Of a stretch of DNA of 64,000 nt, positions 13,107 through 57,746 are shown piece by piece. Positions within the stretch are counted from its first letter, which is position 1, and each line of letters starts with the position of its first letter. A program made the translations under genes and the position numbers. The stretch covers positions 1 to 64,000 of the IMG/VR virus record IMGVR_UViG_3300050821_005528; one strand, written 5' to 3'. The notes under the pieces were generated by a model. That model was given only the letters and a program-made list of their open reading frames with translations. It ran no database searches and had not been told where the DNA came from. The stretch comes from a virus.

Positions 13107-13112
13107 AAACTA

Positions 13113-15389
13113 ATGGCTGACGCCGCAGCGGCTTCCGATATCGTCGTTCATATCGAGGACGAGGACAATGCCACGCGGGTTGATCCCGCTACCGGCACTA
13201 TCGAAATTGACCAGCCTGACGGCAGCGTGGTCGTGCAACTCGACGCCAAGCGGCAATCGAAGCCTGACGGCGACGAGGGCGATAAGTTCTACGCTAATCT
13301 GGCGATCGATATTCCCGGCATCCGGCTCGGGCAGATCGCGAACGATTTGATTGACGCCATCCAGGCCGACGACCGCTCGCGCGGGCAATATCTGCAAATC
13401 AGGGCGCGCGGTCTCGACTTGTTGGGGCTCAAGCTCGAAGAGCCGAAGTCGAGCGTGGGCGATTCGGGCTCGTCGATCGATGGCATGTCGAGCGTGACAA
13501 ACCCGCTGCTGCTTGAAGCTGTATTGAAGGGCTGGGCCAACGCCCGCGCCGAGCTGCTGCCAGCGGAAGGGCCGGTCAAGATCAGCGACGAAGGCGACGA
13601 GACGGCGGCAGAAGACGAGCAAGCCGAGACGCTGGAAAAGGATTTCAATTACTATCTGACAAAGACAGCGACCGAGTACGTCCCCGACACTTCGCATATG
13701 CTGTTGTGGGGAACATATTTCGGTGGCTCCGGGTTCAAGAAGGTTTATCGCTGCCCGATGCGGCGGCGCCCGGTTTCCGAGTCGATCGATGCCAAAGACC
13801 TGATCGTTTCCGATACCACCAAGGATCTGAAAGCCTGCGGGCGCGTCACGCACGTGATCACCATGCGGCCGTCCGTGATGAAGCGGATGAAGCTGCTCGG
13901 CGCCTACCGCGACGCAACGCTGACGCAGCCCACGCCGCAGCCGAACGTGGTCGATGCTAAGATCGCCGGCATCCAGGGCACGCAGCCGACCCGTGACCGC
14001 CCCGAGGATGAGCCCTTTACGCTTTATGAGACGCAATGCGAAATCGATCTTGAGGAGGGCTTTGATCATCCTTCCATGAGCGGCAGCCAGTTCAAGGACG
14101 CCGGCATTCCGCTTCCGTATCTCGTCACTATCGATAAGGATTCGCGGGAAATCCTGCAATTGCGTCGCGATTGGGAAGAGGGCGACGAGGAGTGCGAGCG
14201 CGATCGCATGTATGTGAAATACCCTTACGTTCCAGGCCCTGGTTTCTACGGAACCGGGATGCTCAACATTCTCGGAAATTGCTCGGCCGCGATGACGGCG
14301 GCATGGCGTGAGGCGCTTGACTGCGGCATGTTCGCGAACTTTCCGGGCGGACTGATCACGAAGCTTGGGTCGCGGCAGAACACCAGCAATTTCCGGCTTG
14401 GACCCGGAGAGTTCGTGCCGGTCGAAACCAACAACCTGCCGATCGACAAGGTGGCCATGCCGCTGCCGTACAAGGATGTAACGAGTGGGCTGCTCAAGCT
14501 GATCGAGTTGATAACCGGGCAAGCAAAGGAATTGGGCGGCTCTGCCGAAATCCCCGCTGGCGAAGGGCTGCAAAACATCCCGGTCGGAACCATGTTGGCG
14601 CAGATCGAGCAGGCCACGAAGGTCATGGCGGCGGCGCACAAGGACATGCACCAAGCGCAGGCCGAAGAAATCGACCTGTTCACCAAACTCTTCCGCCGCC
14701 ATCCGGAGGATTTCTGGCGCAGCAACAAGCGGTGTGCGCCGAATACATGGGACGAGCAGAAATTGCTTGCCGCGCTTGACAATTGCAAGCTGGTGCCGCG
14801 TTCCGATCCCAACACGCCGTCGCACCTGCATCGCATCATGAAGGCGGTCGCATGGGCTAACCTCATCGTAATACCGGCGTTTGCGCCATTTCTCAACGCC
14901 AAGGAAATCCTGCTGCGTATTGTGAGGGCGATGCGCGAGGACCCGGCCGGCGTCGTAGTCGATCCGCCGCCCTCGCAGCCGCAGGGCGATCCGGCCGCGA
15001 TGGCGACCGCTAATGCCAAGGTGTTGGACGCTCAGACCAAGGCGCAAAAGCTTCAGATCGACGCCGCCAAGGTCGGCAACGATGCCCAGATCAAGGCGGG
15101 CGAGCTCGCTGCCGAAACCGGTATCGAGCAGTTGCGTCTCAAGCGCGAGGAGATTATCCATCGGGGCGATGCCGCGCAGCAGGCGCAAGATACCGCTCTC
15201 GATGTGCGCAAGCAGGCGCTGGCCGAAAACCAGCATTCGCTCGAACAGGCGAAGGTTGGACACGAGGCTTCGATGGGAATGCGTGAACATTCGTTGGACC
15301 AGGCACGTCATGGCCTTGACGTTGAGAAAGCGAGGCATGATGTTCGCATGGATTTGACGCCAGAATCGCCCAAACCTCAGAAACCTTGA
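13113..15389 (+). CDS. portal protein with long C-terminal helical (barrel-like) extension
   Basis: 758 aa, immediately downstream of the terminase, with an acidic N-terminus. The last ~130 aa are A/Q/K/E-rich with heptad-like spacing, as in P22-type portal barrels. This is a synteny and size call. Confidence 0.75.
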   Translation: MADAAAASDIVVHIEDEDNATRVDPATGTIEIDQPDGSVVVQLDAKRQSKPDGDEGDKFYANLAIDIPGIRLGQIANDLIDAIQADDRSRGQYLQIRARGLDLLGLKLEEPKSSVGDSGSSIDGMSSVTNPLLLEAVLKGWANARAELLPAEGPVKISDEGDETAAEDEQAETLEKDFNYYLTKTATEYVPDTSHMLLWGTYFGGSGFKKVYRCPMRRRPVSESIDAKDLIVSDTTKDLKACGRVTHVITMRPSVMKRMKLLGAYRDATLTQPTPQPNVVDAKIAGIQGTQPTRDRPEDEPFTLYETQCEIDLEEGFDHPSMSGSQFKDAGIPLPYLVTIDKDSREILQLRRDWEEGDEECERDRMYVKYPYVPGPGFYGTGMLNILGNCSAAMTAAWREALDCGMFANFPGGLITKLGSRQNTSNFRLGPGEFVPVETNNLPIDKVAMPLPYKDVTSGLLKLIELITGQAKELGGSAEIPAGEGLQNIPVGTMLAQIEQATKVMAAAHKDMHQAQAEEIDLFTKLFRRHPEDFWRSNKRCAPNTWDEQKLLAALDNCKLVPRSDPNTPSHLHRIMKAVAWANLIVIPAFAPFLNAKEILLRIVRAMREDPAGVVVDPPPSQPQGDPAAMATANAKVLDAQTKAQKLQIDAAKVGNDAQIKAGELAAETGIEQLRLKREEIIHRGDAAQQAQDTALDVRKQALAENQHSLEQAKVGHEASMGMREHSLDQARHGLDVEKARHDVRMDLTPESPKPQKP

Positions 15390-15403
15390 AAGGCGCGCCC
15401 GCC

Positions 15404-16129
15404 ATGGCCCATCCGCATCAGGAACACCGCGCCCATAAGGTCGAGCAGCGCCGCATTGCCCATATCACCAAGGGTTATGCCGGCGGCGGTTCTGTTCATT
15501 CCGATGCCCCGGCCGACAAGAAGCTGGTGCGCGGCATGGTCAAGCCGGCAGCCCTCAAGATGCACGGCGGCAAGACCAAGCATCGCGCCGACAAGCCGCA
15601 CCGCGCCTCCGGTGGGCGCGTGAAGCACGGCAAGAAGCACGGCACCAACGTCAATGTGATCGTCGCGCCCCAGGGCGGCCATGCTGGCCTTGGTGGCGCC
15701 CCGATGGCTGCGGCTCCTCCCGCCCCGCCTCAAGGCGCTCCCGCGCCAATGCCGCGGCCCATGATGCCGCCTCCGGGGGGCGCGTCTCCTCCGGGGGCGG
15801 CTCCGATGCCGTCTCCCGGAATGATGGGGCCTCGCGCCCGCGGGGGACGCGCCTATGCGGCGGGCGGTCGTGTCAAGAGCGGGCCGGCGTGGGAAGAGGG
15901 CAAGCGCAACGGCACGCAGGTCCAGCACAACGAATCCGGCAAAACGGCGAATCAGAAGGATCAGCCGAGCCAATTGAACCGCGGCAAGGTCGTTACCTTC
16001 ATGACCGGCGGCGCTGTCGAGCATCCCAAGAAAGGCGGCATGGCGCCGAAGCTGGCGGGCGGCGCGGGCGGCGGCGAGGCGCGGTTGCAGAAGCCCGGCA
16101 AGATTATCATCAAGAGCGGCAAGAAGTGA
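15404..16129 (+). CDS. highly basic Gly/Pro/Lys/His-rich low-complexity protein
   Basis: Repeated GG-x-V-K/H...R-A-D-K-P motifs and a poly-Pro/Met centre. Shares a motif with 27964 and 28309. Confidence 0.6.
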   Translation: MAHPHQEHRAHKVEQRRIAHITKGYAGGGSVHSDAPADKKLVRGMVKPAALKMHGGKTKHRADKPHRASGGRVKHGKKHGTNVNVIVAPQGGHAGLGGAPMAAAPPAPPQGAPAPMPRPMMPPPGGASPPGAAPMPSPGMMGPRARGGRAYAAGGRVKSGPAWEEGKRNGTQVQHNESGKTANQKDQPSQLNRGKVVTFMTGGAVEHPKKGGMAPKLAGGAGGGEARLQKPGKIIIKSGKK

Positions 16130-16335
16130 GTGACGCCATCAAATTCTACGCGGCCGAGTCGCCGCATCAACTGCGGACGTTGCGTGCGCGACTGACCAAA
16201 CGGTACGGCGATCTGGTCGATGCGGTCGGCAAAGGCACCGCAACGGATTGGGCGGATTACCGGCATCGGTGCGGCGTCATAGCCGGTTTGGCGGATGCAA
16301 TCGTGATGCTGGATGCGACCAACGAACGGGAGTGA
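16126..16335 (+). CDS. hypothetical protein (69 aa)
   Basis: GTGA overlap. Confidence 0.5.
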   Translation: MSDAIKFYAAESPHQLRTLRARLTKRYGDLVDAVGKGTATDWADYRHRCGVIAGLADAIVMLDATNERE

Positions 16336-16339
16336 CTGA

Positions 16340-16762
16340 ATGCGGGCAAAGTTGCGTGAAGTGGCAGCGGCGGCGCTCAATGATCCGCGCCAGGCGTTGC
16401 TTGATTCCATCGGCGACATCAGCGGGATCGAGGTGTTTCACAACCTCGTGCTGGTCGCGACCTATATCCGGCCGGAGAAGACCGCGGGGGGCATCATTCT
16501 CGCCGATGTGACGCTCAAGGAAGATCGCTTTCAAGGCAAGGTGGGGCTGGTGCTCAAGTGCGGCCCGCTGGCGTTCAAGGACGACAATATCGCGAAGTTC
16601 GGCGGCGTCACCATCAATCCCGGCGAGTGGGTGTGGTATCGCCCGGGCGATGGTCATGAGCTATTCGCGATCGATAAGGGCAAGAGCGAGGGCACCTCCT
16701 GCCGGTTCTTCGAGGATACGCAGATCAAGGGTCGGCTCGCCGATCCGTCGCGGATGTGGTGA
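16340..16762 (+). CDS. GroES/Cpn10-like co-chaperonin
   Basis: LVLVATYIRPEKTAGGIILADVTLKEDRFQGKVGLVLKCGP parallels GroES VIVKR..ETKSAGGIVL....K...GEVLAVG, and the downstream GEWVWY parallels GDIVIF. Confidence 0.7.
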   Translation: MRAKLREVAAAALNDPRQALLDSIGDISGIEVFHNLVLVATYIRPEKTAGGIILADVTLKEDRFQGKVGLVLKCGPLAFKDDNIAKFGGVTINPGEWVWYRPGDGHELFAIDKGKSEGTSCRFFEDTQIKGRLADPSRMW

Positions 16763-16768
16763 AGTCGC

Positions 16769-17740
16769 ATGGCTGACGATGACGACACGATCGTAGTTCA
16801 GATCGAGGACAGCGCTAAGGCTGATGGCGCTGCCGGCGGCGATGAGGCGGTCGAGGCGCTGAAAGCGCAATACGCCGAATTGCAGGCTCGTGATGCCAAG
16901 CGTGACGAAGAGTTGGCGGCGGCCCGACGGCGGGAAGCAGACGCGACGGCCGCTGCCGAGCGCGCCCGCAAGGAAGCGACCGAAGCCAAGACGGAAGCGG
17001 CGGACAGTCAGTCCGATGCGGTATCGACGGGACTACAATCCGCGCAAGCGGAGGCGGATTCCGGGGAAGCCGAATATGCCGCTGCCATGGAGAAGGGCGA
17101 CTTTGCCGCTGCTGCGAAAGCGCAGCGCAAGATCGCCAAGGCGGAAGCGCGAATACTGCGACTGGATGAAGCCAAAACCGATCTCGAAGCCCGCAAGGCT
17201 TCGCCCGACAGGGCCGCGACGCAGACGCGGACGGAGCCGCCGCCCGATGCTTTCGAGGCCCACGTCTCGAAATTCACGGAACCAACGGCGCGCTGGATGC
17301 GCGAGCATCGCGACTGGGTGACGGACCCGAAGAAATCTGTGCTGCTCACGCGCGCGCATAATCATGCGCTCGGTGAGGGGTTGGACCCGGACACGGCGGA
17401 ATATTTTGCGCACGTCGAAACCCGGATCGGGCTTCGCAAGGATGCGAATGTTGCCGGCAACGGCAAGACGCCGCCGCGCCGCGGTGCCGCGCCTCCGGTG
17501 GCGCCCGTCAATGGCGGCGGCGGTGCGGGATCGAGCGGAGCGCGCATGAGCGACAACGAGGTGACCTTGAGCCGGCGCGAAGCGGCTGCGGCGACCGATG
17601 GCACGCATATCTGGAATTACGATGATCCGTCGCCGCAGAAACGGTTCAAGAAAGGCGAGCCGATCGGGGTGCAGGAATTCGCGCGCCGCAAGCGCGAGCT
17701 GACGAAACAAGGGGCCTACGACAAGAGCTTGATGGAATGA
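16769..17740 (+). CDS. scaffolding-like protein
   Basis: Ala/Glu/Arg/Lys-rich coiled-coil N-terminal half. Located between the portal and the capsid genes. Confidence 0.55.
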   Translation: MADDDDTIVVQIEDSAKADGAAGGDEAVEALKAQYAELQARDAKRDEELAAARRREADATAAAERARKEATEAKTEAADSQSDAVSTGLQSAQAEADSGEAEYAAAMEKGDFAAAAKAQRKIAKAEARILRLDEAKTDLEARKASPDRAATQTRTEPPPDAFEAHVSKFTEPTARWMREHRDWVTDPKKSVLLTRAHNHALGEGLDPDTAEYFAHVETRIGLRKDANVAGNGKTPPRRGAAPPVAPVNGGGGAGSSGARMSDNEVTLSRREAAAATDGTHIWNYDDPSPQKRFKKGEPIGVQEFARRKRELTKQGAYDKSLME

Positions 17741-17804
17741 GGCTATGAGTGCGAGGCCGCCCGCGCCTGCGGTGGCTCTATAAGTTCATCACGAAGGAAT
17801 AGCC

Positions 17805-18461
17805 ATGACCACACTCAACATCGATCCCGCCGACGACGTGCAAGCGGCCGGCGTTCCCGCTCGCGGGGTGCCGCGCCGCGGCCCTCGTTCCGGCCTGCGC
17901 GAGCCTGGGCGCGATCCGTCGCGCGGTGAAGCCGTGGTGCGGGGCCGCGATGGCGAAATCCTCACTCGCAAGCGAACTGGCGTCGGCGACATATTCGCGA
18001 TCCCGCCTGAACTGATCGAGCCTGGCTGGGAAATGCAGTGGAACGCCGTTACGGTGGTCGGCGATACCGAAGTGCTGACCGATCAGAACCTCATGATGGC
18101 AGAGAACGGGTGGCGCCCCGTCAATGCGGATCGCGAGGGATTCGCCGGGCGCTTCTCCCCGGTCGGCACCAAGGGTGCGATCATCCGCGGCGGCCAGCGG
18201 CTCGAAGAGCGGCCAAAGGTGCTGTGCGATCAGGCTCGGGCGGAGGATATCCGCAATGCCAAGCGGCTGATCAGCGACCGCAACGAATCCCTGAAACTGT
18301 CGGGCGTCACCAAGGGCACGGCTTTCGAAATGGGCGGCCGTTATCGCGGCACGGGCGGCAACGTGAACATGAATCTTGGGCGTGGCGTCTACGCGGATGA
18401 AGGCGGTAATATGGTCGAGGCGCCGCGGCCGGCCCATCAACTGGCGGAATCCGGTGAATGA
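17805..18461 (+). CDS. hypothetical head-module protein (218 aa)
   Basis: RBS GAAGGAATAGCC. No domain recognised. Confidence 0.6.
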   Translation: MTTLNIDPADDVQAAGVPARGVPRRGPRSGLREPGRDPSRGEAVVRGRDGEILTRKRTGVGDIFAIPPELIEPGWEMQWNAVTVVGDTEVLTDQNLMMAENGWRPVNADREGFAGRFSPVGTKGAIIRGGQRLEERPKVLCDQARAEDIRNAKRLISDRNESLKLSGVTKGTAFEMGGRYRGTGGNVNMNLGRGVYADEGGNMVEAPRPAHQLAESGE

Positions 18462-19402
18462 GGCTCGCGATCACGCTCGCCACCCGCGGCCGGCCGCAAC
18501 AGGTCGTCGATACCATCTCGCGCTCCGTCGCGCTGTGGTCGCTGCCTGATACCCAATTGTGGGTGATGGTGGACGCCGATGATGCCGCGACGATTGCGGC
18601 CGTTCATGAAGCGCAGCCGCTGTGGAACGATGCTGGCCGTCTCGTATTCATCGATGTGCGCGAGCGCGAGGACACCATAGCGGCCAAATGGAACCGGATC
18701 GTCGAATTACGGTCGGAGGCCGATGTGTACCTCGTGGTAGGCGATGACGATCCGTTCGTGACGCCTGGTTATGACGAGCGGATCGTGGAAGCAGCGGCGC
18801 GTTTTCCCGACGGAATCGGAATGGTGTACGGCCACATGGCAAATGCCTCGTTCTCCGGCGTGATCGCGCCGACGCGCGGCTTCGCGCGTGCGCTCGGGCA
18901 TCTGTGCCCGCCGTATTTCCCCTATTGGTTCTGGGATCATTGGACCGACGACATTGCGCGTTTGATCGGGCGGATTTCGTTCGCCGATGTGCGCACGGAT
19001 CAATCGGGCGCCGGCCATACCCAGGAAATGCGCGAGCCCAGCTGGTGGGCGACGTTCTTCGATGCCGCAAAGTGCATGCGGCGGACGCAGGCGAGAAACA
19101 TCATCGATTCCGCCGGATTCATGGAACCGGAATGGCGCAAGGAGTGCCTGCGGGCGCACTATCCACTGATCGAGCATCGCTCGAAGTGGATCAACGACAG
19201 CGTGCGGGCGACCGGCCGCCATCATGACATGCGCTCGGGCCTCTCGCTCGCCGATGCGCGCTATCAGCGCGTCAAGCAATCGGCAATCGCCATGATCCCG
19301 CATCTGCTTGACGATTACGGCATGGACAAGAGCGAAGCGGCGGCGTTCCGCGACGTGTTGATACCGCAGCCGTTCATTCCGGCGCTGGCGAGGCTGGGAT
19401 GA
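18458..19402 (+). CDS. GT-A-fold glycosyltransferase-like protein
   Basis: ITLATRGRP...VMVDADD...LVVGDDDP fits a Rossmann-like GT-A start with DxD motifs. ATGA overlap with the upstream structural gene. Confidence 0.5.
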   Translation: MRLAITLATRGRPQQVVDTISRSVALWSLPDTQLWVMVDADDAATIAAVHEAQPLWNDAGRLVFIDVREREDTIAAKWNRIVELRSEADVYLVVGDDDPFVTPGYDERIVEAAARFPDGIGMVYGHMANASFSGVIAPTRGFARALGHLCPPYFPYWFWDHWTDDIARLIGRISFADVRTDQSGAGHTQEMREPSWWATFFDAAKCMRRTQARNIIDSAGFMEPEWRKECLRAHYPLIEHRSKWINDSVRATGRHHDMRSGLSLADARYQRVKQSAIAMIPHLLDDYGMDKSEAAAFRDVLIPQPFIPALARLG

Positions 19403-20817
19403 CGGCGCTGTTGGAAGCAGACTGGCGCGAGGCAGTTCGGGCGGTTGACATTGCCTACGATGTATTGCCGCAGCGGGTCGTTCTCGCGCACGGCTGCTTC
19501 GATCTGCTCCACCTCGGTCACATCCGTCACCTACGGGAAGCGCGCTCGCTCGGCGATCAGCTTGTGGTCAGCGTCACGGCTGATCCCCACGTCGGCAAGG
19601 GCGTAGGTCGGCCCCATTTCACGGCAGAGCAGCGCGCCGAAGCGTTGCGGGCACTCGATTGCGTCGATAAGGTTGTGATCACGGACGAGCCGAACGCCGT
19701 CGATGTGATCAAACGCTTGCGGCCGGCTGTGTATGTCAAGGGGCCGGATTACAACGGCAGCGACGATCCTGTGCTCGCGCGGGAGGCTTCGGCTGCGCTG
19801 GCCTGCGGCGGCCGCATTCATTTTACGGCCGGTGAGCGTTGGTCGTCGTCGCGCCTGATCAATATGGAAAGGTTCCCTGATGGGGTGCAAGATTATCTTC
19901 AAGCCGCCCGGCAGCACGAGTTTCTCCCTCGAATACTTGAGGCTTTTGAACGTGCCGATTCGCTCAATATCGCCTTCGTCGGCGAAACCATCATCGACGA
20001 ATACCGGTACGTCGAAGCCCTCGGCAAAGCCTCCAAGGAATTCGCCCTCGCAACCGTCGAAACCGGCAAGGAATCCTTCATAGGCGGCGTCGTCGCGGCG
20101 TCGAAGCAGGCGGAATGGAAGAAGGTCACGCTGGTCACGCCGTCCACGTCCATCAAGAAAACCCGCTTCGTCGATCGGGACTTCAACCGCAAGATTTTCG
20201 AGGTGTATGACCGGCGGACGATCGAGGTTCACCCGCTGATTCATGCCGAGTGGGAATGCAGGCTCGCCGGTGAGGTCAATGCGGCTGATGTCGTTGTGGT
20301 GTTCGATTTCGGTCACGGTCTCATTACGCCGCAGCAGCGTAGCGTGATCGAGCGGAACGCCGAGTTTCTGGCAGTGAATGCGCAAACGAATGCCGGAAAT
20401 TATGGGTTCAACCCGATCACGCGGTGGGCGCGTGCCGACTTCGTGTGTCTTGACGAACCGGAAGCGCGGCTTGCGACCCGTATGCGGGAACAGACGTTGC
20501 GCGAGGTGGCGGCGGCCATCCGCAATGGATTCGACGATGTGCCGGAGGTGCTGGTTACGCGCGGTCGGTATGGCTCCTATTGCTTTGGCGACGACGACGG
20601 CGAATGTCCGCCGTTCGTCACAAACGGCATCGATACCATGGGGGCCGGCGATGCCGTGATGGCGGTCGTTGCTCCCCTGCTGGCGGCCGGCCTTGACCTT
20701 GAAGCGGCAGCGTTCGTCGGCAACGTGGTCGGCGCCATCAAGGTTTCGATCGTCGGGCATCGCCGGCATGTCGAGCGCAAGGAGATACTGCAAACCGTCG
20801 AGGCGCTACTGAAATGA
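19399..20817 (+). CDS. bifunctional nucleotidyltransferase (HIGH-motif cytidylyl/adenylyl-transferase) plus PfkB-family sugar kinase; HldE-like activities in reversed domain order
   Basis: The N-terminal domain has AHGCFDLLHLGHIRHL...VSVTAD. The C-terminal domain has the PfkB signature GIDTMGAGDAVMA. ATGA overlap. Confidence 0.8.
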   Translation: MTALLEADWREAVRAVDIAYDVLPQRVVLAHGCFDLLHLGHIRHLREARSLGDQLVVSVTADPHVGKGVGRPHFTAEQRAEALRALDCVDKVVITDEPNAVDVIKRLRPAVYVKGPDYNGSDDPVLAREASAALACGGRIHFTAGERWSSSRLINMERFPDGVQDYLQAARQHEFLPRILEAFERADSLNIAFVGETIIDEYRYVEALGKASKEFALATVETGKESFIGGVVAASKQAEWKKVTLVTPSTSIKKTRFVDRDFNRKIFEVYDRRTIEVHPLIHAEWECRLAGEVNAADVVVVFDFGHGLITPQQRSVIERNAEFLAVNAQTNAGNYGFNPITRWARADFVCLDEPEARLATRMREQTLREVAAAIRNGFDDVPEVLVTRGRYGSYCFGDDDGECPPFVTNGIDTMGAGDAVMAVVAPLLAAGLDLEAAAFVGNVVGAIKVSIVGHRRHVERKEILQTVEALLK

Positions 20818-20853
20818 TCAAATGGCTGCACGCGATCTTGAAGGAGGCGGTCC

Positions 20854-21057
20854 ATGGCTGATATCCTCGCGCCGCTTCATGTGCTGGTGCGGTTCGGCGA
20901 AGCCATTCCGGCGAGCGTGCAGGGTGTGGCGCTGCTGGATTTTGAGCGCAGTATCCGGGCGCAATCCGGGCTTCGTGTCGAGGTGTTCAAAGAGGCCAAG
21001 GGCGATGATTCAAAGCTGCGCAGCGCCATGACGGCGCAACAGAGGGCGAAGCTGTGA
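20854..21057 (+). CDS. hypothetical protein (67 aa)
   Basis: Strong RBS GAAGGAGGCGGTCC followed by ATG. Confidence 0.55.
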   Translation: MADILAPLHVLVRFGEAIPASVQGVALLDFERSIRAQSGLRVEVFKEAKGDDSKLRSAMTAQQRAKL

Positions 21058-22211
21058 CCGCATCTCTTCCTGAACTGACTGATCACATCGTTGGCGCCAA
21101 ACCGGGCGGCTCCGTCCACGATCTCCAATTAGACGGCACCAAGATCGGGTGGTATCGCGAGCGGGTCGAGGCATGGCGTCGCGGCGAGAAGATCGCGCCT
21201 ATAACCATGGATGTAGCGTGGACCCGCAAGTGCCAGGCGGCTTGCAATTTCTGCTACGCGGCGCTTCAAGCGAGCGAAGATACCGTCATCACCAAGAAGC
21301 ACGCATTTGAGTTTCTTGAAGATGCTGCGGCGCTCGGCGTAAAGGGGGTTTCTCTGATCTCGGACGGCGAATCGACGGGCGTGCCGTGGTATGCCGAATC
21401 AATTCAGTACGGAGCCAAGCTAGGTTTGCAGCTCGGCATCAGTTCGAACGGCGTTGCTCTCACGCGCGACGTGCTCGAAGCCATCATGCCGTCGCTGTCT
21501 TATCTGCGCTTCAACTTCTCAGGCGGCGAGCGCAAGCGTTGGGCCGGAATCATGGGCCTGAAGCAAGTGTGGTTCGATCGCGTCATCGCCAACGTGAAGG
21601 CGGCGATGGAGATCAAGCGGCGCGATAACCTCGGCTGTAACGTGAATATGCAGTTCGTGGTAATGCCGCAGGATGGCGACCAGATTTTGCCTTTCGCGCG
21701 ACTGGCAAAGGAAATCCGGCCCGACTATGCCATCATGAAGCATTGCGCCGACTCGGCCGATAAGGCGCTCAACGTCGATTATCGGCGCTATAGCGATCTA
21801 TTCCCATTGTTTGCCGAAGCGGAGGCGATGGGAGATGACACCTTCCGCGTTGCGGTGAAGTGGTCGCGTATTGCGGACGAGGGGCGGCGCGACTATCAGC
21901 GTTGTTACGGGCCGCCCTTCATCCTGCAAATGTCGGGAAATGGTCTGATCGCTCCGTGCGGCCAGAAATTCAACTCCCGCTATGCCAAGTTTCATATCGG
22001 CAACATCACGCGCGATCGGTTTCGGGAAATCTACGACAGCGAGCGCTATTGGGATGTGCTCGGATATCTAGCAAGCGAAGAGTTCGACGCAAGCAGGGAT
22101 TGCGGGGAGAATTGTTTACAAACAAACAGTAATTCGTGGCTCGACAAGTATGTGAAGGGCGCGGTGTCGTTTCATACATCGCCGCCGCCGCCGCACATGG
22201 GTTTTGTGTAA
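21054..22211 (+). CDS. radical SAM enzyme
   Basis: CQAACNFCY is the CX3CX2C cluster. SLISDGEST is a GGE-like SAM-binding motif. C-terminal cysteines (CGQK...DCGENC) suggest an auxiliary cluster. Confidence 0.85.
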   Translation: MTASLPELTDHIVGAKPGGSVHDLQLDGTKIGWYRERVEAWRRGEKIAPITMDVAWTRKCQAACNFCYAALQASEDTVITKKHAFEFLEDAAALGVKGVSLISDGESTGVPWYAESIQYGAKLGLQLGISSNGVALTRDVLEAIMPSLSYLRFNFSGGERKRWAGIMGLKQVWFDRVIANVKAAMEIKRRDNLGCNVNMQFVVMPQDGDQILPFARLAKEIRPDYAIMKHCADSADKALNVDYRRYSDLFPLFAEAEAMGDDTFRVAVKWSRIADEGRRDYQRCYGPPFILQMSGNGLIAPCGQKFNSRYAKFHIGNITRDRFREIYDSERYWDVLGYLASEEFDASRDCGENCLQTNSNSWLDKYVKGAVSFHTSPPPPHMGFV

Positions 22212-23995
22212 TGAAAGTCTCCGAATACGTCGCTGGGTTCCTAGCCGATCTGAGTAAGCGCGGAAGCCCTTACGCGCCTGCGTTGGCGCATCGCACCCGC
22301 GTTTATATGGTGTGCGGCGCCGGCGCGATGCACCTCAATGATTCGATCTGCCATCATCCCGGCATCGACGTGATGGCGTTCCATCATGAGCAAGCCGCGA
22401 CCTTCGCGGCGGAAGCCGACGCCCGTGTGACGAACGATATCGCCGTCGTGCACGTCACTGCGGGTCCCGGCGGCACCAATACGGTGACGGGCCTCGCCTG
22501 CGCCTATGTGGATTCGATCCCGTTACTGGTGATCGCCGGCCAGGTCACGAGCCACACGATGGTCAAGCACACCGGCTGCCGCCAGCTCGGCATGAACGAG
22601 CTGGACATGGTGTCGATCGTGCAGCCGGTCACCAAGTACGCCATCACGGTACTCGAACCGTTTATGATCCGGTATCACCTCGAACGTGCAGTGAGTGCTG
22701 CGATGAGCGGGCGCCGCGGACCTGTGTGGGTGGAAATCCCCCTTGACGTACAGGCGGCCGAAATCGATTCCGAGCGCCTGACTGGCTTCAACGATGCCGA
22801 AGTCGCCGTTATCGGCAACACGACTTACCTTCGCGAGAAAGCCGCCGAAGTCGTCGCGATGCTCGACCGAGCTGAGCGCCCGTTGTTGCTGATCGGCAAT
22901 GGCGTGCGGCTCGCCGGCGCGTGCAGCGAAATGCGCGAGTTGGTCCAGCGCCTCGGCATTCCGGTCGTGTCGTCATGGAACGCGAGCGATATCATTCCGA
23001 CCGATCATGGCTGCTATATCGGCCGCTGCGGGATATTCGGCGACCGGATGAGCAACAGTGCTGTGCAAAACGCCGACTTGATTCTTGCGATCGGGACGCG
23101 GTTGTCGGTGGCGCAGATCGGGCACCATGCGAACCTGTTTGCTCCGAAAGCCAAGAAGATCATCGTTGATATTGATCGCAATGAGAGCGACAAGCCGACG
23201 GTGCGCGCCGATCTCGTGGTGACGGCGGACGCCCGGGATTTCCTGGTGCGGCTGCTCGAACGCGCGGTGCCGCGGTTGGAGGAGTTCTGGTTTGATAAAC
23301 CGTGCCCGGTAGGGCGCTGGGTAGATACGCCGGCCGGCGCTGGCGTTGACGCCTATCGCTTCGTCGAGCTGCTGAACGAGCACCTTGACGACGGTGCGAT
23401 CGTGGTGACGGACGTTGGTTTTAGTTTCATTCCGGCGATGCAGCGCCTTCGCCTGAAGGAAGGCCAGCGGTTGTTTCATTCATCCGGTGTGTCTCCAATG
23501 GGCTGGGGTCTGCCGGCGGCGATCGGTGCCTGCCGGGCGGCGCCTTCGCGGCAGATCATTTGCCTCACTGGCGACGGCGGCTTGATGATGAATCTGCAAG
23601 AATTGCAAACGATCGCGCATCATCGGTTGCCGATATCGATCTTCGTATTTGCAAATGATGGCTACGCGACCATGCGAATTGCGCAGAATAACCATTTTGG
23701 GCGGGAGAGCGTAGCGGGAGTGAAGTCCGGCTTGTCTATCCCGGATTTGGTTGACCTCGCGGAAGGTTTTGGATTGTTTTGCAAGGTGCTCCCGAGCGCA
23801 GAATCCCTATCGTGGTGGGCTGCTTGGGATGTTCTGCCAGAATTTGTCATTCTTGAGATGGCGCCCGGTCAAGTGATCGCCCCTCGCGTCCAGTCCCGCA
23901 CGAGGGACGGCAAGTTCATTCCGACGCCGCTCGACGACATGTGGCCCTATCCAACCGAGTCCGAATCTCTCCACAAGGAACCTGTCCATGGTTAA
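22211..23995 (+). CDS. thiamine-diphosphate-dependent enzyme (acetolactate-synthase/YerE-like)
   Basis: HEQAATFAAEA, TAGPGGTN and the ThDP motif GDGGLMMNLQEL...ANDGY. About 594 aa with three-domain length. TAATG overlap. Confidence 0.85.
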   Translation: MKVSEYVAGFLADLSKRGSPYAPALAHRTRVYMVCGAGAMHLNDSICHHPGIDVMAFHHEQAATFAAEADARVTNDIAVVHVTAGPGGTNTVTGLACAYVDSIPLLVIAGQVTSHTMVKHTGCRQLGMNELDMVSIVQPVTKYAITVLEPFMIRYHLERAVSAAMSGRRGPVWVEIPLDVQAAEIDSERLTGFNDAEVAVIGNTTYLREKAAEVVAMLDRAERPLLLIGNGVRLAGACSEMRELVQRLGIPVVSSWNASDIIPTDHGCYIGRCGIFGDRMSNSAVQNADLILAIGTRLSVAQIGHHANLFAPKAKKIIVDIDRNESDKPTVRADLVVTADARDFLVRLLERAVPRLEEFWFDKPCPVGRWVDTPAGAGVDAYRFVELLNEHLDDGAIVVTDVGFSFIPAMQRLRLKEGQRLFHSSGVSPMGWGLPAAIGACRAAPSRQIICLTGDGGLMMNLQELQTIAHHRLPISIFVFANDGYATMRIAQNNHFGRESVAGVKSGLSIPDLVDLAEGFGLFCKVLPSAESLSWWAAWDVLPEFVILEMAPGQVIAPRVQSRTRDGKFIPTPLDDMWPYPTESESLHKEPVHG

Positions 23996-24893
23996 CAAGG
24001 TTTTTGTTTTTGTTCCTGCGTTCGGTCAGCAAGTGTCCGCCACCACGTTCCTGACGACGCATGCCGTGCAGGCGGCCTTGGCGTCCAAGGGCATCGGCGG
24101 CGGCATTTCGACGCTTTCGTTTCCAGACATCGCCGAGTTGCGAAGCATGGCGACGACGATCTGGTATGACACGCTGCTGGATTCCTCGCACATCCTATTC
24201 GTCGATGCCGATATGGGATTCGCGCCCGATCTCGTCTTCGACATGCTTACCTTCGGCGAGCCCGTGATCGGCGCTATCTATCCTCAGCGCAAGATGCCGC
24301 TGTCGTGGGCGGGCTCCGGGACCGGCGAGAACCAAGCGGAACGTCGTGGTAATTTCATGCGGGTCGAAGGCGTCGGCATGGGGTGCACGCTGATTCATCG
24401 CGATGCCATCCGCATCATGCTCGATAAGTTTCCCGAAATGGTCGATACGCGGCTCGAACTGCATCCGGCGGCCGGGATGCTCCGCGATACCGGCGCAAAG
24501 CGTTTGATTCGCTGCTTCGACAAGATCGACATTCCAGAGCGCGGCCAGGTGTCGGAGGATTTGTCATTCTGCATGCGTTGGAACAAGTGCGGGGGCACCG
24601 TCTGGGCGGCTGTCGGTCATCGGATCAGCCATGTTGGGCCGTTCGACTACTGCGGACGGTATCTCGACATGGTGGAAGCGCAGCAGGCGCAGGCCAACGC
24701 GGCTGCGAAAGCAGAGGCGGCGGCACAGAAAGCGGCGGAAGCAGAGCGTGTTCGGCTCGTCCATGATCAAGAGGCATTGCATACGGCTAGCGAAGCGGCA
24801 AAAGCGGAGCGCGACGTTGCCCAGACGGTAGTGGCCGTTGCCTCGGCGAAGCGCCGTAGCGGGCGCAACGGGCGGCACGCGCGAGCGGTGTAA
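23988..24893 (+). CDS. GT-A-fold glycosyltransferase with Ala-rich coiled-coil tail
   Basis: FVPAFG...ILFVDADMGF (DxD)...GMGCTLIHRD...SEDLSFC. Confidence 0.6.
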   Translation: MVNKVFVFVPAFGQQVSATTFLTTHAVQAALASKGIGGGISTLSFPDIAELRSMATTIWYDTLLDSSHILFVDADMGFAPDLVFDMLTFGEPVIGAIYPQRKMPLSWAGSGTGENQAERRGNFMRVEGVGMGCTLIHRDAIRIMLDKFPEMVDTRLELHPAAGMLRDTGAKRLIRCFDKIDIPERGQVSEDLSFCMRWNKCGGTVWAAVGHRISHVGPFDYCGRYLDMVEAQQAQANAAAKAEAAAQKAAEAERVRLVHDQEALHTASEAAKAERDVAQTVVAVASAKRRSGRNGRHARAV

Positions 24894-24912
24894 GATTTAT
24901 TCACATCGCCCC

Positions 24913-24940
24913 TTGACAGCGTTTTGCGCCCCTCTAATCA
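24913..24940 (+). promoter_or_regulatory. candidate sigma70-like promoter TTGACA-N16-TAATCA ahead of the capsid genes
   Basis: Located in the only sizeable intergenic gap (216 nt) of the head region. Would give a ~170-nt leader. Confidence 0.3.
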
Positions 24941-25109
24941 TGATCAGATATTTCCTCCCGTGAGTCACGAGAGGTCGAGCGAAGAGCGAAGATCAGCGGT
25001 GCCCGCGATCTGACGCTGAATATCCGCAGCGAGCCGTTGCGAATTTCCCCGGACTTCGGACCTTGGCAGAGCCTGCCTGGACGAGCCCCATCGTGGAGCT
25101 TGTTCGCGC

Positions 25110-25724
25110 ATGGCCAATACGCAGGCCCAATTCGGCTTCAGGCACATCGGGTTCTTGTCCGGGGGCGCTCCCGACTACCAGATGTCCACCTATCCGATTC
25201 AATCGACCTATTCGACCTTGATCGGCTTTGGCGATCCGGTCATCCAGAATTCGACGGCCGCCGCGACGGCGCCTTTCATCATCCAGGCAACCGGATCGCT
25301 TGCGACGGCTGGGCCTATCGTCGGCATCTTCGTCGGCTGCGAATACGTGGCCGCGAACGGCGTCACACAGTGGTCGCCGTATTGGGTCGGGTCGGCATCC
25401 ACCACGGCCATCGGCTACGTGATCGACGCCCCGAACGCCAAGTTCCTGGTGGCGTCGCTTCAGACCGCCATCACGTCGGCGAACATCGGGTGGGTGGCGA
25501 ATTTCACCACCGGCGCGCCGGCGACGACCGGCGGCGCTTTCTCCATCGCAACGCTCGACCAATCGACCGCAACGGCGGCCGGCGGCACGTCCGCGAGCGC
25601 GCTGCCGTTCAAGATTGTCGGTCTCTATCCCGGCGTCGGCAACGGCTCCGATCCGACCACCAACTACAACTGGGTCGTCGTCACCTTCAACAATCAAATC
25701 TTCAAGTCGCCGGTCGGCTGGTAA
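25110..25724 (+). CDS. virion structural protein, possible capsid decoration/cement protein
   Basis: 204 aa, Ser/Thr/Ala/Gly-rich and beta-rich, directly upstream of the major capsid gene. Confidence 0.6.
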   Translation: MANTQAQFGFRHIGFLSGGAPDYQMSTYPIQSTYSTLIGFGDPVIQNSTAAATAPFIIQATGSLATAGPIVGIFVGCEYVAANGVTQWSPYWVGSASTTAIGYVIDAPNAKFLVASLQTAITSANIGWVANFTTGAPATTGGAFSIATLDQSTATAAGGTSASALPFKIVGLYPGVGNGSDPTTNYNWVVVTFNNQIFKSPVGW

Positions 25725-25739
25725 GGGGAGACTCACTAA

Positions 25740-26654
25740 ATGCCCGTCGCATTGGCAAATATCCGCTCCGAGTTGATCCCCGGACTGTTTGATGTCCGCG
25801 GCTCATACGACATGATCCCGCGGCAGTGGGATAAGGTGTTCAAGACGCACACCTCGAACATGGCGGTCGAGCGCTCGACGCAGATGGCGTTCGTGGCGCT
25901 GCCGTATCTCAAGGACGAAGGCGCCGCGACGCAGTTCGACAATAACGCGGGCGAGCGCTTCACCTGGGCGTTCGTGCATATCGAGGTAGCGCTCGGCTAT
26001 GCCATCACCCGCAAGGCGATCGACGACAATCTCTACAAAGCCCAGTTCAACCCGACCAATCTCAAGCTTCAGGAAGCCTTCGCGCAATTCAAGGAAATCC
26101 AGGCCGCGAACATCCTGAATCTCGGCACAACCTACAATGCCGCACAGGTCGGCGATGGCGTCGCTTTCTTCTCGACGGCGCACCCATACGACGGCGGCAC
26201 GTGGCCGAATACGTCTTCGACGCCGAAGAGCCTGAACGAGTCGACACTCCTCGCCGACATGACGAACGTGCGCACGCAATTCGTCAACGAGCGCGGCCTT
26301 CGCATTCTCGCTCGCGCCCGGCGACTGATCGTGCCGCCAAACCTCGAAGCCATCGCCATCCGGTTGAGCAAGACCGAGCTGCGGCCCGGCACGGCCGACA
26401 ACGATGTCAACGCCATCCTTACCTTGAGCGGCGGTCTGCCGGAAGGTTTCATCGTTCTCGACTTCCTCACCTCGAACTTCGCGTGGTTCCTCACCACGAA
26501 CATCGAGGGGATGATCCACATGATGCGTATTCCCTACGAATCTGACATGTGGGTCGATAACGTCACTGACAATCTTCTTGTCAAGGCATACGAACGTTAC
26601 TCATTCGGCATCAACGACCCGCGCGCCGCGTGGGGCGAATTCCCGACCTCGTAA
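25740..26654 (+). CDS. major capsid protein (HK97-fold type, inferred)
   Basis: 304 aa with RBS TAAGGGGAG. The position and the sequence pattern (WDKVF...ERSTQ...LKDEGAA...ITRKAIDDN...) resemble phage major head subunits. Confidence 0.7.
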   Translation: MPVALANIRSELIPGLFDVRGSYDMIPRQWDKVFKTHTSNMAVERSTQMAFVALPYLKDEGAATQFDNNAGERFTWAFVHIEVALGYAITRKAIDDNLYKAQFNPTNLKLQEAFAQFKEIQAANILNLGTTYNAAQVGDGVAFFSTAHPYDGGTWPNTSSTPKSLNESTLLADMTNVRTQFVNERGLRILARARRLIVPPNLEAIAIRLSKTELRPGTADNDVNAILTLSGGLPEGFIVLDFLTSNFAWFLTTNIEGMIHMMRIPYESDMWVDNVTDNLLVKAYERYSFGINDPRAAWGEFPTS

Positions 26655-26669
26655 CCGGGAGCACGGCAG

Positions 26670-27950
26670 ATGGCCGATTCCAATTTCCGCGGTCCCGTCA
26701 ATGCGATGGGATCACTTGAGAACGCGAATGCTACGACCTCGCCGGGGTCGCAGGTTCCGATCGATCCGCTCGACGGGCCGTCCTCGTTCTATCAAGGTAT
26801 CTGCTGGCCTGATCCGCGCAGCGTGCCGTTTCCGAAGGATGGCTTCCGGCCTGGGCAGTTGCCTGCGATCCTCTATCTAGGCGACATGTGGACGGTCGAT
26901 GCCATTCCCCAGGCGACCAGTTCCACCACGCTTGCGGCCGCTCAGGCGGTGACGGCCAACGTCGCCATGGCGTTGTCTACCGTTGCGGTGACAAACTTCT
27001 CGTCCGGCGCCGCCTCTGTTGCCTACGGGGTGCCGATCCCGGTCGGGACATCGTTCACGATTGCGCCGATCGCGCTCGACTTCGGGTTCACGACCGGCAC
27101 CACGGTCGCCAATTCGTCGGCGGTCACCGTTCCCGACAGCACGAAGTTCACGGTCGGGCAGTGGGTCATCCTCGGCAACGTCGCGAACGCCGCCGGCACC
27201 GCGAGCCTGATCACGCAGATTCAATCCACCTCCGGGACGACCACGGTCTATGTGGGGTCGAACCTGCCGGCGACCGCGCTCGGGATTCCGATCGGGGCCG
27301 CCAATCTGTTCGGCGGCAATTTCCTGCCGCCCGCGACGCAGTTTGGTCCTTCGGCGGTCAGCGCCATAGCGGCGGCGAATCGCCTCCAGGCGGGCTTCAC
27401 GCGTGTCCTCAATCCCAGCGAAATGCTCGCCCGCAACATCTGGGTGAGCATCGCGACGGCCGCGAATACTGCGGTTGCGGTCCTGGTCAGCGGATGGGAC
27501 GCCTGGTTTACGCCGATGACGGAGTTGATCACGCTCAATGCCACGACGAGCGTTACGTCGTCCTTCGGCAAGAAGGCGTTCAAGTACATCAACTCGCTCG
27601 TTCCGACCACGACGGTGGCGCAGAACGTATATGCCGGCATCGGCGATACTTTCGGGTTCCCGTTCCGCGCCGATGAATGGGTCCAGGTGCAGGTTTACGC
27701 CGGCGGCACCGCCGTCAGCAATTCGGTCGGCATCACCACGGCGCTTCTCAATACGGCCGCGACACAGACGACCGCCGACGTGCGAGGCACCATTCAGGTC
27801 AACGTCAATGGTGCCGGCAGCGCTATCAGCAATGTGATGACGACGAACAACGTCAACCGGCTTGCCATCATACAGAATCCGGGTGTATGGAATCAGATAT
27901 CCTGCACGCCCAACAATCTCGCGCCGATGTTCGGCACCGCTCAGGTCTGA
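26670..27950 (+). CDS. Ser/Thr/Ala-rich virion structural protein (426 aa)
   Basis: Beta-rich composition within the structural operon. Confidence 0.65.
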   Translation: MADSNFRGPVNAMGSLENANATTSPGSQVPIDPLDGPSSFYQGICWPDPRSVPFPKDGFRPGQLPAILYLGDMWTVDAIPQATSSTTLAAAQAVTANVAMALSTVAVTNFSSGAASVAYGVPIPVGTSFTIAPIALDFGFTTGTTVANSSAVTVPDSTKFTVGQWVILGNVANAAGTASLITQIQSTSGTTTVYVGSNLPATALGIPIGAANLFGGNFLPPATQFGPSAVSAIAAANRLQAGFTRVLNPSEMLARNIWVSIATAANTAVAVLVSGWDAWFTPMTELITLNATTSVTSSFGKKAFKYINSLVPTTTVAQNVYAGIGDTFGFPFRADEWVQVQVYAGGTAVSNSVGITTALLNTAATQTTADVRGTIQVNVNGAGSAISNVMTTNNVNRLAIIQNPGVWNQISCTPNNLAPMFGTAQV

Positions 27951-27963
27951 AGGAGACCCCATC

Positions 27964-28302
27964 ATGAAGGGTGGACACAAGTCCCATCACCACGGCAAGA
28001 AGGGCGGCGGTCGCGTCGGGCTCGTCGCGTCGGGCAACCCCGATGTGCTCAAGGAAGCCAAGGGCGAGGAGCCCTACGACAAGGGCGACGAGAAGAAGAA
28101 GGGTGGCGCCGTCAAACGCAAGGATGGCGGCCATGTTCACGGCAAGGCGACGAGGCATCGCATGGACCGGCCGAAGCCGGGGCGCAAGCGCGGCGGGGGC
28201 GTCGGAGCTGATCGCTCGCCGCTCAGCTCGGCGCATGCGAGCCACGGCGGCGGCGGAAAATCGCCGTCGTCCGAGGACAGCTACGGTGGGCATCCCGACT
28301 AG
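27964..28302 (+). CDS. highly basic Gly/Lys/His-rich protein (112 aa)
   Basis: RBS GAAGGAGACC. Starts MKGGHKSHHHGKKGGG and contains DGGHVHGKATRHRMDRPKPGRKRGGG. Confidence 0.6.
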   Translation: MKGGHKSHHHGKKGGGRVGLVASGNPDVLKEAKGEEPYDKGDEKKKGGAVKRKDGGHVHGKATRHRMDRPKPGRKRGGGVGADRSPLSSAHASHGGGGKSPSSEDSYGGHPD

Positions 28303-28308
28303 GCGGCC

Positions 28309-28563
28309 ATGTCGAAACTGACCGCCAAGCGACGTAACGCGCTTCCCGGCAAGGATTTTGCCGGGCCGGGCAGGTCCTTCCCGATCAATGATGCAGCGCA
28401 TGCGAGGAACGCCATCGCGCGGGCCTCGCAGTTTCATCCGGAGTTGAAAGCGGAGATTCGCGCCAAGGTGCATCGCAAGTTTCCTGGCATCAAGCAGCAC
28501 GAAGAAATGCGAATGGACGGCGGCGCCGTGCGCCACAGGGCGGATCGGTCGCGCCGGAAATAA
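28309..28563 (+). CDS. small basic protein with FPINDAAHARNAIAR motif
   Basis: I associate the motif with a phage DUF (DUF6582-like, from memory). The C-terminus is MDGGAVRHRADRSRRK. Confidence 0.55.
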   Translation: MSKLTAKRRNALPGKDFAGPGRSFPINDAAHARNAIARASQFHPELKAEIRAKVHRKFPGIKQHEEMRMDGGAVRHRADRSRRK

Positions 28564-28572
28564 GGAGCCTCC

Positions 28573-29609: not shown

Positions 29610-29613
29610 GAAG

Positions 29614-33094: not shown

Positions 33095-33101
33095 GGATAA
33101 G

Positions 33102-57543: not shown

Positions 57544-57586
57544 CGTTCCAAACGCCAGCGTTCCTATCGAGGTAAGGAGTGATATC

Positions 57587-57733: not shown

Positions 57734-57746
57734 GGCGAGAAAGACC

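Follow-up and report, generated by a model that had tools for sequence, protein, structure and literature searches.

Background

Why should a phage keep six genes for making and transferring a sugar among the genes for its head? The question is raised by the IMG/VR virus record IMGVR_UViG_3300050821_005528, of which positions 1 to 64,000 were analyzed (hereafter, "the window"). An earlier note, made from the letters of this DNA, had described at 18458-24893 two glycosyltransferases, a fusion protein with HldE-like activities in the opposite domain order, a radical S-adenosylmethionine (SAM) enzyme, a thiamine diphosphate (ThDP) enzyme and a 67-amino-acid (aa) open reading frame (ORF), and had read them as a cassette welded into the head operon. 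Our analysis shows that these genes form an accessory insertion in a hotspot between head genes and that their biosynthetic core, judged by gene content, is a pared-down copy of a widespread, unnamed bacterial cluster. We regard it as quite likely that this core makes a sugar by a pathway of heptose-type, radical SAM and ThDP enzymes. The complete statement, in which the two glycosyltransferases of the cassette pass the sugar on to an acceptor of the phage itself, is one that we hold with a little less than even confidence.

Composition and coupling of the cassette

Six co-oriented ORFs on the + strand were read directly from the window at 18458-24893, and the identical six genes were called independently on the source metagenome contigs that bear an identical radical SAM protein. 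With the genes that border them, they are as follows.

17805-18461, +: 218-aa gene conserved in the head module, which bounds the insertion slot on the left and follows the scaffold-like gene family-wide
18458-19402, +: GT1, a soluble GT2-family GT-A-fold glycosyltransferase (AlphaFold/Foldseek, PHROG 14945)
19399-20817, +: fusion of an N-terminal nucleotidyltransferase with a C-terminal PfkB kinase, 472 aa (Pfam, NCBIfam HldE models)
20854-21057, +: 67-aa ORF, left over from the C-terminal domain of a radical SAM partner protein (profile search of bacterial loci)
21054-22211, +: radical SAM enzyme, 385 aa, with one twitch-like auxiliary-cluster domain (Pfam, invariant cysteines)
22211-23995, +: YerE/JanthE-like ThDP carboligase of the acetolactate synthase (ALS) superfamily, 594 aa (Pfam, PDB matches)
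23988-24893, +: GT2, a soluble glycosyltransferase of GT-A fold whose C-terminal part has a long helix (AlphaFold/Foldseek, PHROG 1574)
24913-24941, +: match to a sigma-70-like promoter, preceding the capsid genes (TTGACA-17-AATCAT, 10/12 positions, a consensus match only)
25110-25724, +: conserved 204-aa head-module protein, right border of the slot and candidate acceptor (PHROG 37556)
25740-26654, +: major capsid protein (Phage_capsid_4 / Mu gpT-like, PHROG 371)

Consecutive genes overlap through ATGA at 18458 and again at 19399, GTGA at 21054, TAATG at 22211 and 8 nucleotides at 23988, and the sole gap inside the cassette, 36 nucleotides before 20854, contains the ribosome-binding site GAAGGAGG. 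Coordinates and overlaps thus agree throughout with those of the earlier note, and the domain and fold searches described below uphold each of its domain calls. The promoter match is the only sigma-70-like site on the + strand in 13.5 kb (15000-28500); it sits within the 216-nucleotide gap that precedes 25110, and this gap, which parts the cassette from the capsid genes, has no terminator-like site. Of the two border proteins, that of 17805 has no match in Pfam or PHROG, and that of 25110 is encoded immediately 5' of the major capsid gene in all relatives compared.

Biosynthetic enzymes

The protein of 19399 combines the Pfam domains CTP_transf_like (residues 30-118) and PfkB (residues 344-453). 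The first carries the HxGH motif of the cytidylyltransferase fold (HLGH at 38) with a downstream SxxR-type motif (SSSR at 149), and the second the DTxGAGD anion-hole motif of PfkB kinases (DTMGAGD at 412). HldE, rfaE_dom_II (E 5.6e-31) and rfaE_dom_I (E 4.5e-16) are the top three of its 17 NCBIfam matches, all below cut-offs; for HldE, the score is 114.6 bits against an equivalog cut-off of 521 bits. Positions 340-468 of the HldE model align to residues 25-154 of the fusion. As the transferase part of the model thus falls on the N-terminus and the kinase model on the C-terminus, the domain order is truly reversed, as the earlier note had read it, and the kinase-first order of HldE is not found here. 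Among solved structures, the best match of the N-terminal domain is 5x9q ("putative cytidylyltransferase"), which we take to be the heptose-1-phosphate adenylyltransferase HldC, and the heptose 7-phosphate kinase 4e84 is among the PDB matches of the kinase domain. In one relative (L004:3998-4960), the fusion gene is reduced to the kinase half, corresponding to residues 176-472 of the window protein.

The protein of 21054 scores above the Pfam cut-off for Radical_SAM (34.1 versus 29.5 bits) and slightly over that for SPASM (23.6 versus 21.5 bits). Among 12 phage homologues, the cysteines of the CX3CX2C motif (C60, C64, C67) are invariant, and so are exactly four in the C-terminal part (C284, C302, C350, C354). 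A full SPASM domain, with seven or eight cysteines and two auxiliary clusters, is therefore not present; four cysteines are enough for one auxiliary cluster, which fits a twitch-like domain. Residues 281-357 align with the auxiliary-cluster region of BtrN in a profile comparison, at an E-value of only 0.25. The epimerases HygY and NeoN are examples of radical SAM carbohydrate enzymes with twitch or SPASM domains. Two peptide maturases, SkfB and PqqE, are among its nearest profile matches; in the window protein, the cluster motif comes after only about 55 residues, and there is no N-terminal peptide-recognition domain. The family is compact, with 93 representative clusters at E <= 1e-30 among 1.84 billion, and the phage enzyme is 50-56% identical to bacterial homologues of many phyla.

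The protein of 22211 has all three TPP_enzyme domains (N, M and C) and, in its translation, the GDG...N motif of ThDP binding (GDGGLMMN...NDGY). It had been called acetolactate-synthase-like, which holds and can be refined. Its closest solved relative is 8rph (E 2e-106, 360 bits), the ketone-accepting carboligase JanthE, by a wide margin over 5ahk (240 bits), presumably the YerE homologue of Pseudomonas protegens, and E. coli acetohydroxyacid synthase (AHAS) I, 6lpi (230 bits). The score against the AHAS equivalog is 307.6, compared with a cut-off of 538, and the protein is thus nearer the ketone-accepting YerE/JanthE group than the acetolactate synthases. YerE-type enzymes build acyl-branched sugars by addition to keto-sugars (PMC9306805). 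A tblastn search of isolated phages with this enzyme was uninformative, since most of its matches were acetolactate synthases of hosts, in records that were mislabelled.

Where relatives have no ALS-like gene, a split pair takes its place, E1α (E1_dh) and E1β (Transket_pyr). We compared ThDP types across 22 viral loci with the radical SAM gene, and found the two to be mutually exclusive, with one always present where the region was covered. Since one type always replaces the other, and there are never both or neither, the ThDP step belongs to the core of the pathway. A related ThDP enzyme (31-38% identical) is encoded on more than 130 other viral contigs; among those fetched (L019-L092), about a quarter have a stand-alone cytidylyltransferase, about a third an FkbM methyltransferase and none the radical SAM gene. 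These loci probably represent a separate, widespread branched-sugar pathway of phages.

Bacterial source of the core

A scan with the radical SAM alignment over one genome per species gave 274 relatives, of which 80 loci (50-56% identical) were fetched from Nisaea, Azospirillum, Herbaspirillum, Pelagibacterales, SAR116, Nannocystaceae, Elusimicrobia and others. One of the 80 (L097) is a 67-kb relative of the window phage, binned with a Rhizobiales genome. Co-occurrence was counted in the 41 bacterial loci with full flanks. Alongside the radical SAM gene, these encode the partner protein (34/41), the reversed fusion (34/41), a GmhA-like isomerase (20/41), and a ThDP enzyme of the E1α/E1β (30/41) or ALS-like (3/41) type, together with two DegT aminotransferases (29/41) and two short-chain dehydrogenases/reductases (SDRs; 26-29/41). 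An ALS-like gene lies directly 3' of the radical SAM gene in six Pelagibacterales loci and one Elusimicrobia locus, as it does in the window. In the Azospirillum oryzae locus (on a 318-kb plasmid), the only bacterial locus annotated in full, Pfam confirmed the assignments and added a NUDIX protein and two GT4 enzymes.

The comparison of gene neighborhoods, which the earlier note had proposed, shows that the biosynthetic genes cluster together in many bacteria as well as in viral relatives and that the phage core is of bacterial origin. RefSeq names for the bacterial homologues are generic ("radical SAM protein", "PfkB family carbohydrate kinase"), our literature search found no paper describing the radical SAM/fusion/ThDP cluster, and nothing was found in the literature that links it to bradyrhizose or other named higher sugars. 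The earlier remark that no radical SAM plus ThDP sugar pathway had been described thus stands as far as the literature search goes; what does not stand is any reading of it as a phage invention, the cassette being a reduced copy of a bacterial cluster.

The bacterial loci also explain the 67-aa ORF. It is kept in the viral relatives and lies immediately 5' of the radical SAM gene in most of them, with another gene in between in two (L003 and L015). A hidden Markov model of the ORF matched 50 ORFs at E <= 0.01 (49 bacterial and that of L097), nearly all directly 5' of the radical SAM gene, and in the 12 bacterial loci with checked domain positions it corresponds to the last ~50 residues of a protein of 230-420 aa. 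As its sequence is the tail of a larger bacterial partner, the ORF is a remnant of that partner and not a stand-alone peptide. We dropped the ORF as a candidate precursor of a peptide made on ribosomes and modified after its translation (RiPP) on this account. A NifU-like reading of the partner, at an E-value of only 0.097, is not claimed.

The same neighborhoods bear on the substrates. In nearly all complete viral relatives, a GmhA-like SIS-domain gene adjoins the fusion gene (between it and the 67-aa ORF in ten of them), and the best solved matches of its product are phosphoheptose isomerases. Since the relatives add this isomerase, which also occurs in about half of the full-flank bacterial loci, the sugar is probably heptose-derived. 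The presence of the fusion, aminotransferases and SDRs beside the bacterial radical SAM genes, together with the four auxiliary cysteines and their weakly BtrN-like spacing, supports a role of the radical SAM enzyme on a sugar rather than a peptide. With neither a dehydratase nor an SDR in the cassette to create a keto group, and with a BtrN-like single-cluster domain, the enzyme would be expected to oxidize a sugar hydroxyl, giving the carbonyl for attack by the ThDP enzyme. That the ThDP enzyme may use a keto-sugar activated by a nucleoside diphosphate as its acceptor is supported indirectly, by the sugar-gene context in phages and bacteria.

An insertion hotspot filled step by step

The window covers most of a ~67-kb, podovirus-like phage genome, which encodes a DUF5131 protein, two DNA methyltransferases, a GcrA-like regulator, a replication initiator, large terminase, portal, scaffold-like, capsid, virion and ejection proteins, and an endolysin. 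A megablast search of the region against 50,697 phage records returned no match. The capsid has relatives in the Pelagibacter phages HTVC023P and HTVC027P (38-40%), Roseobacter phages CRP-901/902 and Caulobacter phages; with the GcrA-like regulator (Pfam GcrA, E 4e-13), which is encoded with an N6/N4 DNA methylase in the early region (4610-5374 and 7443-8201), this points to an alphaproteobacterial host. The pairing recalls the GcrA/CcrM circuit of alphaproteobacteria.

In IMG/VR, at least 12 loci have the radical SAM gene and more than 600 the capsid gene. The cassette-bearing relatives share the order portal, scaffold, 17805, GT1, fusion, variable genes, 67-aa ORF, radical SAM, variable genes, GT2, 25110 and capsid, with capsids 89-93% identical and cassette proteins 50-80%. 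Conservation within the head module is unusually uneven: identity is only 40-60% for the portal, scaffold, 25110 and 26670 proteins, compared with 89-93% for the capsid. In the wider family (capsid 60-88% identical), the 25110 orthologue follows directly after that of 17805 and there is no cassette, so that the slot is empty in most of the family. Intermediates also exist. Two loci (L188, L190) have GT2 and an FkbM methyltransferase, GT2 being the only gene of the window cassette left there, and two others (L186, L187) have GT2 and GT1. A SAM methyltransferase gene lies 5' of GT2 in twelve relatives, and the window itself, which lacks both GmhA and a methyltransferase, is the most reduced version of the full pathway; L004 also lacks GmhA.

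Empty slots and graded intermediates argue that the cassette is an accessory insertion at a hotspot and that it grew in steps, of which the glycosyltransferases were the first, and the series from L188/L190 through L186/L187 to the full cassette shows that glycosyltransferase genes occupied the slot before the pathway arrived. Of the earlier description as "welded into the head-morphogenesis operon", the position between head genes and the coupling to them hold, and the permanence is overstated for a slot that most of the family leaves empty. The slot and its neighbors also host HNH endonuclease genes, scattered in the cassettes of relatives (L005:12573-13181, L005:2260-2946, L017:2401-3111 and others); in L017, one of them separates the radical SAM and ThDP genes. 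Such scatter suggests that homing endonucleases move through the hotspot. In L008, the head module includes a Ro60-like gene with TROVE and vWA domains (L008:14680-15984), flanked by GT2 and the orthologue of 25110. In a second viral lineage (L006/L017), a tail-fibre-like gene adjoins the same set of biosynthetic genes.

Four further observations concern other parts of the window. The 432-aa DUF5131 protein (2194-3492) spans all 243 profile positions over residues 62-419, and a large insertion in the domain is therefore likely. A papain-family cysteine protease is encoded at 57579-58526 (Peptidase_C1, E 6e-13). In the 1247-aa protein of 41260-45003, the C-terminal ~150 residues match domains of minor head, endolysin and DarB-like proteins. 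Opposite the portal gene, a 742-aa ORF on the - strand (13110-15338) is probably no real gene but an artefact of high GC content.

Glycosyltransferases and the acceptor

Both glycosyltransferases have the GT-A fold and a DxD motif, so the Foldseek check proposed for 18458 and 23988 agrees with what had been read from their sequences. The AlphaFold model of GT1 (mean confidence score, pLDDT, 91.1) has WrtF, TarP, TarS, PcManGT, RmlT and SpsA as its top PDB matches; D96 and D97 are invariant in the homologue alignment and D98 nearly so, and the protein matches PHROG 14945 ("glycosyltransferase", E 4e-6). GT2 (pLDDT 82.7) consists of a GT-A core and one helix spanning 222-290, with D73 and D75 invariant. 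Its structural neighbors in the PDB include STIV A197, Mnn9, the collagen glycosyltransferases LH3 and COLGALT1, and the PBCV-1 capsid glycosyltransferase; the BFVD matches comprise many GT-A proteins of phages, including one with an FkbM methyltransferase fused to it. Membership in a curated family could not be assigned, as neither protein has a Pfam match at E <= 0.01 (GT1 reaches only E 0.082 against Glycos_transf_2; two of its homologues have a precomputed PF00535 match), and profile searches of the two against PDB sequences gave nothing significant. By hhalign, GT1 shows no detectable relationship to GT2 or to gp80 of HTVC027P. No membrane-like segment was found in GT1, GT2 or any other cassette protein.

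Metagenomes hold about 500 protein clusters of each glycosyltransferase, and none of the 79 bacterial loci has a homologue of either. Since both are soluble, confined to phages, present in the slot before the pathway and coupled in translation to the head genes, a phage-specific acceptor is favored. That it might be part of the virion is suggested by the tail-fibre-like gene beside the L006/L017 pathway, by the cultured relative HTVC027P, in which a GT2 homologue lies beside another glycosyltransferase in the tail region, and by the protein- and capsid-glycosylating GT-A enzymes among the structural neighbors of GT2. We consider the virion a possible acceptor, on which our confidence falls somewhat short of even.

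The earlier note had also taken the Ser/Thr richness of the head proteins as a pointer to the acceptor. The 25110 protein is indeed 20% Ser/Thr with 5% charged residues, and the proteins of 25110, 26670, 28573, 29217 and 30693 (region 25110-34067) have 20-26% Ser+Thr and 5-8% K+R+D+E. The family-wide comparison, which covered the 25110 orthologues, gave 19.3% Ser/Thr with the cassette versus 20.3% without it. We rejected Ser/Thr content as evidence of capsid glycosylation for this reason.

Proposed pathway

The substrate, step order, radical SAM chemistry, expression timing and acceptor that follow are what we infer from these genes. Sedoheptulose 7-phosphate would be converted to a heptose phosphate by GmhA, which relatives encode and which the host would supply for the window phage. 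The fusion protein would phosphorylate this product and then nucleotidylate it. The twitch-type radical SAM enzyme, aided by the 67-aa remnant, would oxidize or otherwise activate one position of the sugar, at which the ThDP enzyme would add an acyl unit of two carbons or more. The product would be a branched or chain-extended higher sugar activated as a nucleoside diphosphate (NDP) derivative, and the two soluble, phage-specific GT-A enzymes would attach it to an acceptor peculiar to the phage, with virion surface proteins as the likeliest, at the time when the structural genes are expressed. A more specific version, in which the radical SAM enzyme oxidizes a hydroxyl of an NDP-heptose, the ThDP enzyme adds two carbons, bacteria aminate the product twice, and the phage puts the non-aminated product on its capsid, strikes us as unlikely in its entirety. 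Were it true, no tailed phage before this one would be known to synthesize an exotic virion glycan of its own.

Several points weigh against this proposal. No gene for GmhA, for the GmhB phosphatase or for the methyltransferase seen in relatives occurs in the window, so that the pathway would have to rely on host enzymes. The fusion, radical SAM and ThDP proteins all score below curated equivalog cut-offs, which leaves their substrates to inference. The solved structures nearest to GT1 glycosylate cell-envelope polymers, and include the prophage enzyme TarP. As the slot is a general insertion hotspot, position alone says little about function, and the relatives compared are all metagenomic. 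Finally, a Ser/Thr content that is the same whether or not the cassette is present characterizes the family and is no evidence of glycosylation.

Alternative explanations

Some of these points favor another destination of the sugar. The phage might make it, or boost limiting host steps, so that GT1 and GT2 modify lipopolysaccharide (LPS), capsule, exopolysaccharide or flagellin, with the supposed effect of blocking superinfection or keeping progeny off lysed cells. This is a serious rival, if on balance an improbable one. The biosynthetic core does come from bacterial loci of a polysaccharide type, with GT4 enzymes, aminotransferases and SDRs; the phage has kept a partial pathway, as is often so for auxiliary metabolic genes; GT1 resembles the wall-polymer glycosyltransferases TarP, TarS and RmlT; and pelagiphage glycosyltransferases have been read in this way in published work (PMC7029224). 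However, the cassette has no flippase and no membrane proteins of the GtrA/B/C type, and so is not a seroconversion module, which would pair a flippase with membrane glycosyltransferases and be linked to lysogeny. Moreover, the bacterial clusters are without GT1 and GT2, the cassette is tied to head genes by translational coupling and does not lie in an early or lysogeny module, and no integrase is found among the ORFs tested.

We regard it as very unlikely that the activated sugar is instead placed on a modified base of the phage DNA to evade restriction. There is precedent in phage clusters that put heptose on 5-hydroxymethylcytosine with a kinase and a cytidylyltransferase and that can adjoin structural genes (bioRxiv 10.1101/2023.12.21.572611), and the window encodes two DNA methyltransferases. 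However, no TET/5mYOX, dCMP/dUMP hydroxymethylase or other base-hydroxymethylating enzyme occurs among the scanned ORFs, which did not include every small ORF. The glycosyltransferase that installs heptose on DNA in that precedent is a GT-B enzyme (bioRxiv 10.1101/2023.12.21.572611) and GT1 and GT2 are GT-A enzymes, and most of the phage family has no cassette.

That the radical SAM enzyme cross-links or oxidizes the 67-aa ORF as a RiPP-like precursor, or a capsid protein, with the sugar genes being separate, is scarcely credible, since the overlap of that ORF with the start of the enzyme (GTGA), its conserved C-terminus and the profile matches to SkfB and PqqE are outweighed by its origin as the end of a larger bacterial protein, the intervening gene in L003 and L015, the lack of a peptide-recognition domain and of cysteines for more than one auxiliary cluster, and the sugar enzymes that are the constant bacterial neighbors.

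Implications

The cassette links an abundant family of uncultured phages to self-encoded glycan synthesis by radical SAM and ThDP chemistry, and it exposes a bacterial sugar pathway that is conserved, at least in the 80 fetched loci of many phyla, unnamed and directly testable. The series from no cassette to one glycosyltransferase, two glycosyltransferases and the full pathway, with the exchange of ThDP types, is a ready comparative experiment, and shows phages assembling multi-enzyme pathways from host parts. If the virion is the acceptor, virion glycosylation would extend from phages of Actinobacteria to those of Gram-negative bacteria, and adsorption, stability and recognition would be affected.

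Comparison with known systems

Virus-encoded glycosyltransferases, virion glycosylation in mycobacteriophages and the sugar pathways of giant viruses are already known. What is new here is a phage-borne heptose/radical SAM/ThDP pathway, its derivation from an unnamed bacterial cluster, and its stepwise assembly with replacement of the ThDP enzyme.

Mycobacteriophages carry glycosyltransferases but are not known to carry sugar-biosynthesis genes, and so would use the nucleotide sugars of the host. Their virion glycosylation was reportedly described by Freeman et al. in 2023 (cited in PMC12619734). Both mycobacteriophages and the chloroviruses, with their capsid glycosylation (PBCV-1 A64R), resemble the present phage in having virus-encoded GT-A enzymes in or near structural genes, and A64R and a protein of mycobacteriophage Ardmore are among the structural neighbors of GT2. 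The cassette differs from the mycobacteriophage systems in bringing its own multi-step radical SAM/ThDP pathway.

With the ADP-heptose pathway of the Gram-negative LPS core (GmhA, HldE or HldA/HldC, GmhB), the cassette shares the PfkB heptokinase-like and cytidylyltransferase-fold domains and, in relatives and bacterial clusters, the GmhA-like genes that adjoin the fusion. It differs in the reversed domain order, the low score against HldE, the absence of GmhB and HldD, and the further processing of the product by radical SAM and ThDP enzymes. With the YerE-type carboligases of yersiniose, erwiniose and caryophyllose synthesis and with JanthE, the closest in structure, the ThDP enzyme shares a superfamily and a three-domain build, and the formation of a C-C bond on an oxidized sugar, as in the YerE scheme (PMC9306805), fits its proposed role. 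In YerE-type pathways, however, the keto-sugar comes from a 4,6-dehydratase acting on a CDP- or dTDP-hexose, whereas the cassette has no dehydratase; its ThDP enzyme has a constant radical SAM partner and is interchangeable with a split E1α/E1β pair. The dehydrogenase BtrN has the same CX3CX2C core and a four-cysteine C-terminal domain of aligned spacing, although the similarity to the cassette enzyme is not significant (the E-value of 0.25 given above), and only the cassette type has a dedicated partner protein.

A further counterpart is the unnamed bacterial cluster itself, which has the radical SAM enzyme, the partner, the reversed fusion, GmhA and an E1α/E1β or ALS-like ThDP enzyme in common with the phage versions. 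To these, bacteria add two DegT aminotransferases, two SDRs and sometimes a NUDIX protein and GT4 enzymes; the phages have instead their own pair of GT-A glycosyltransferases and methyltransferases.

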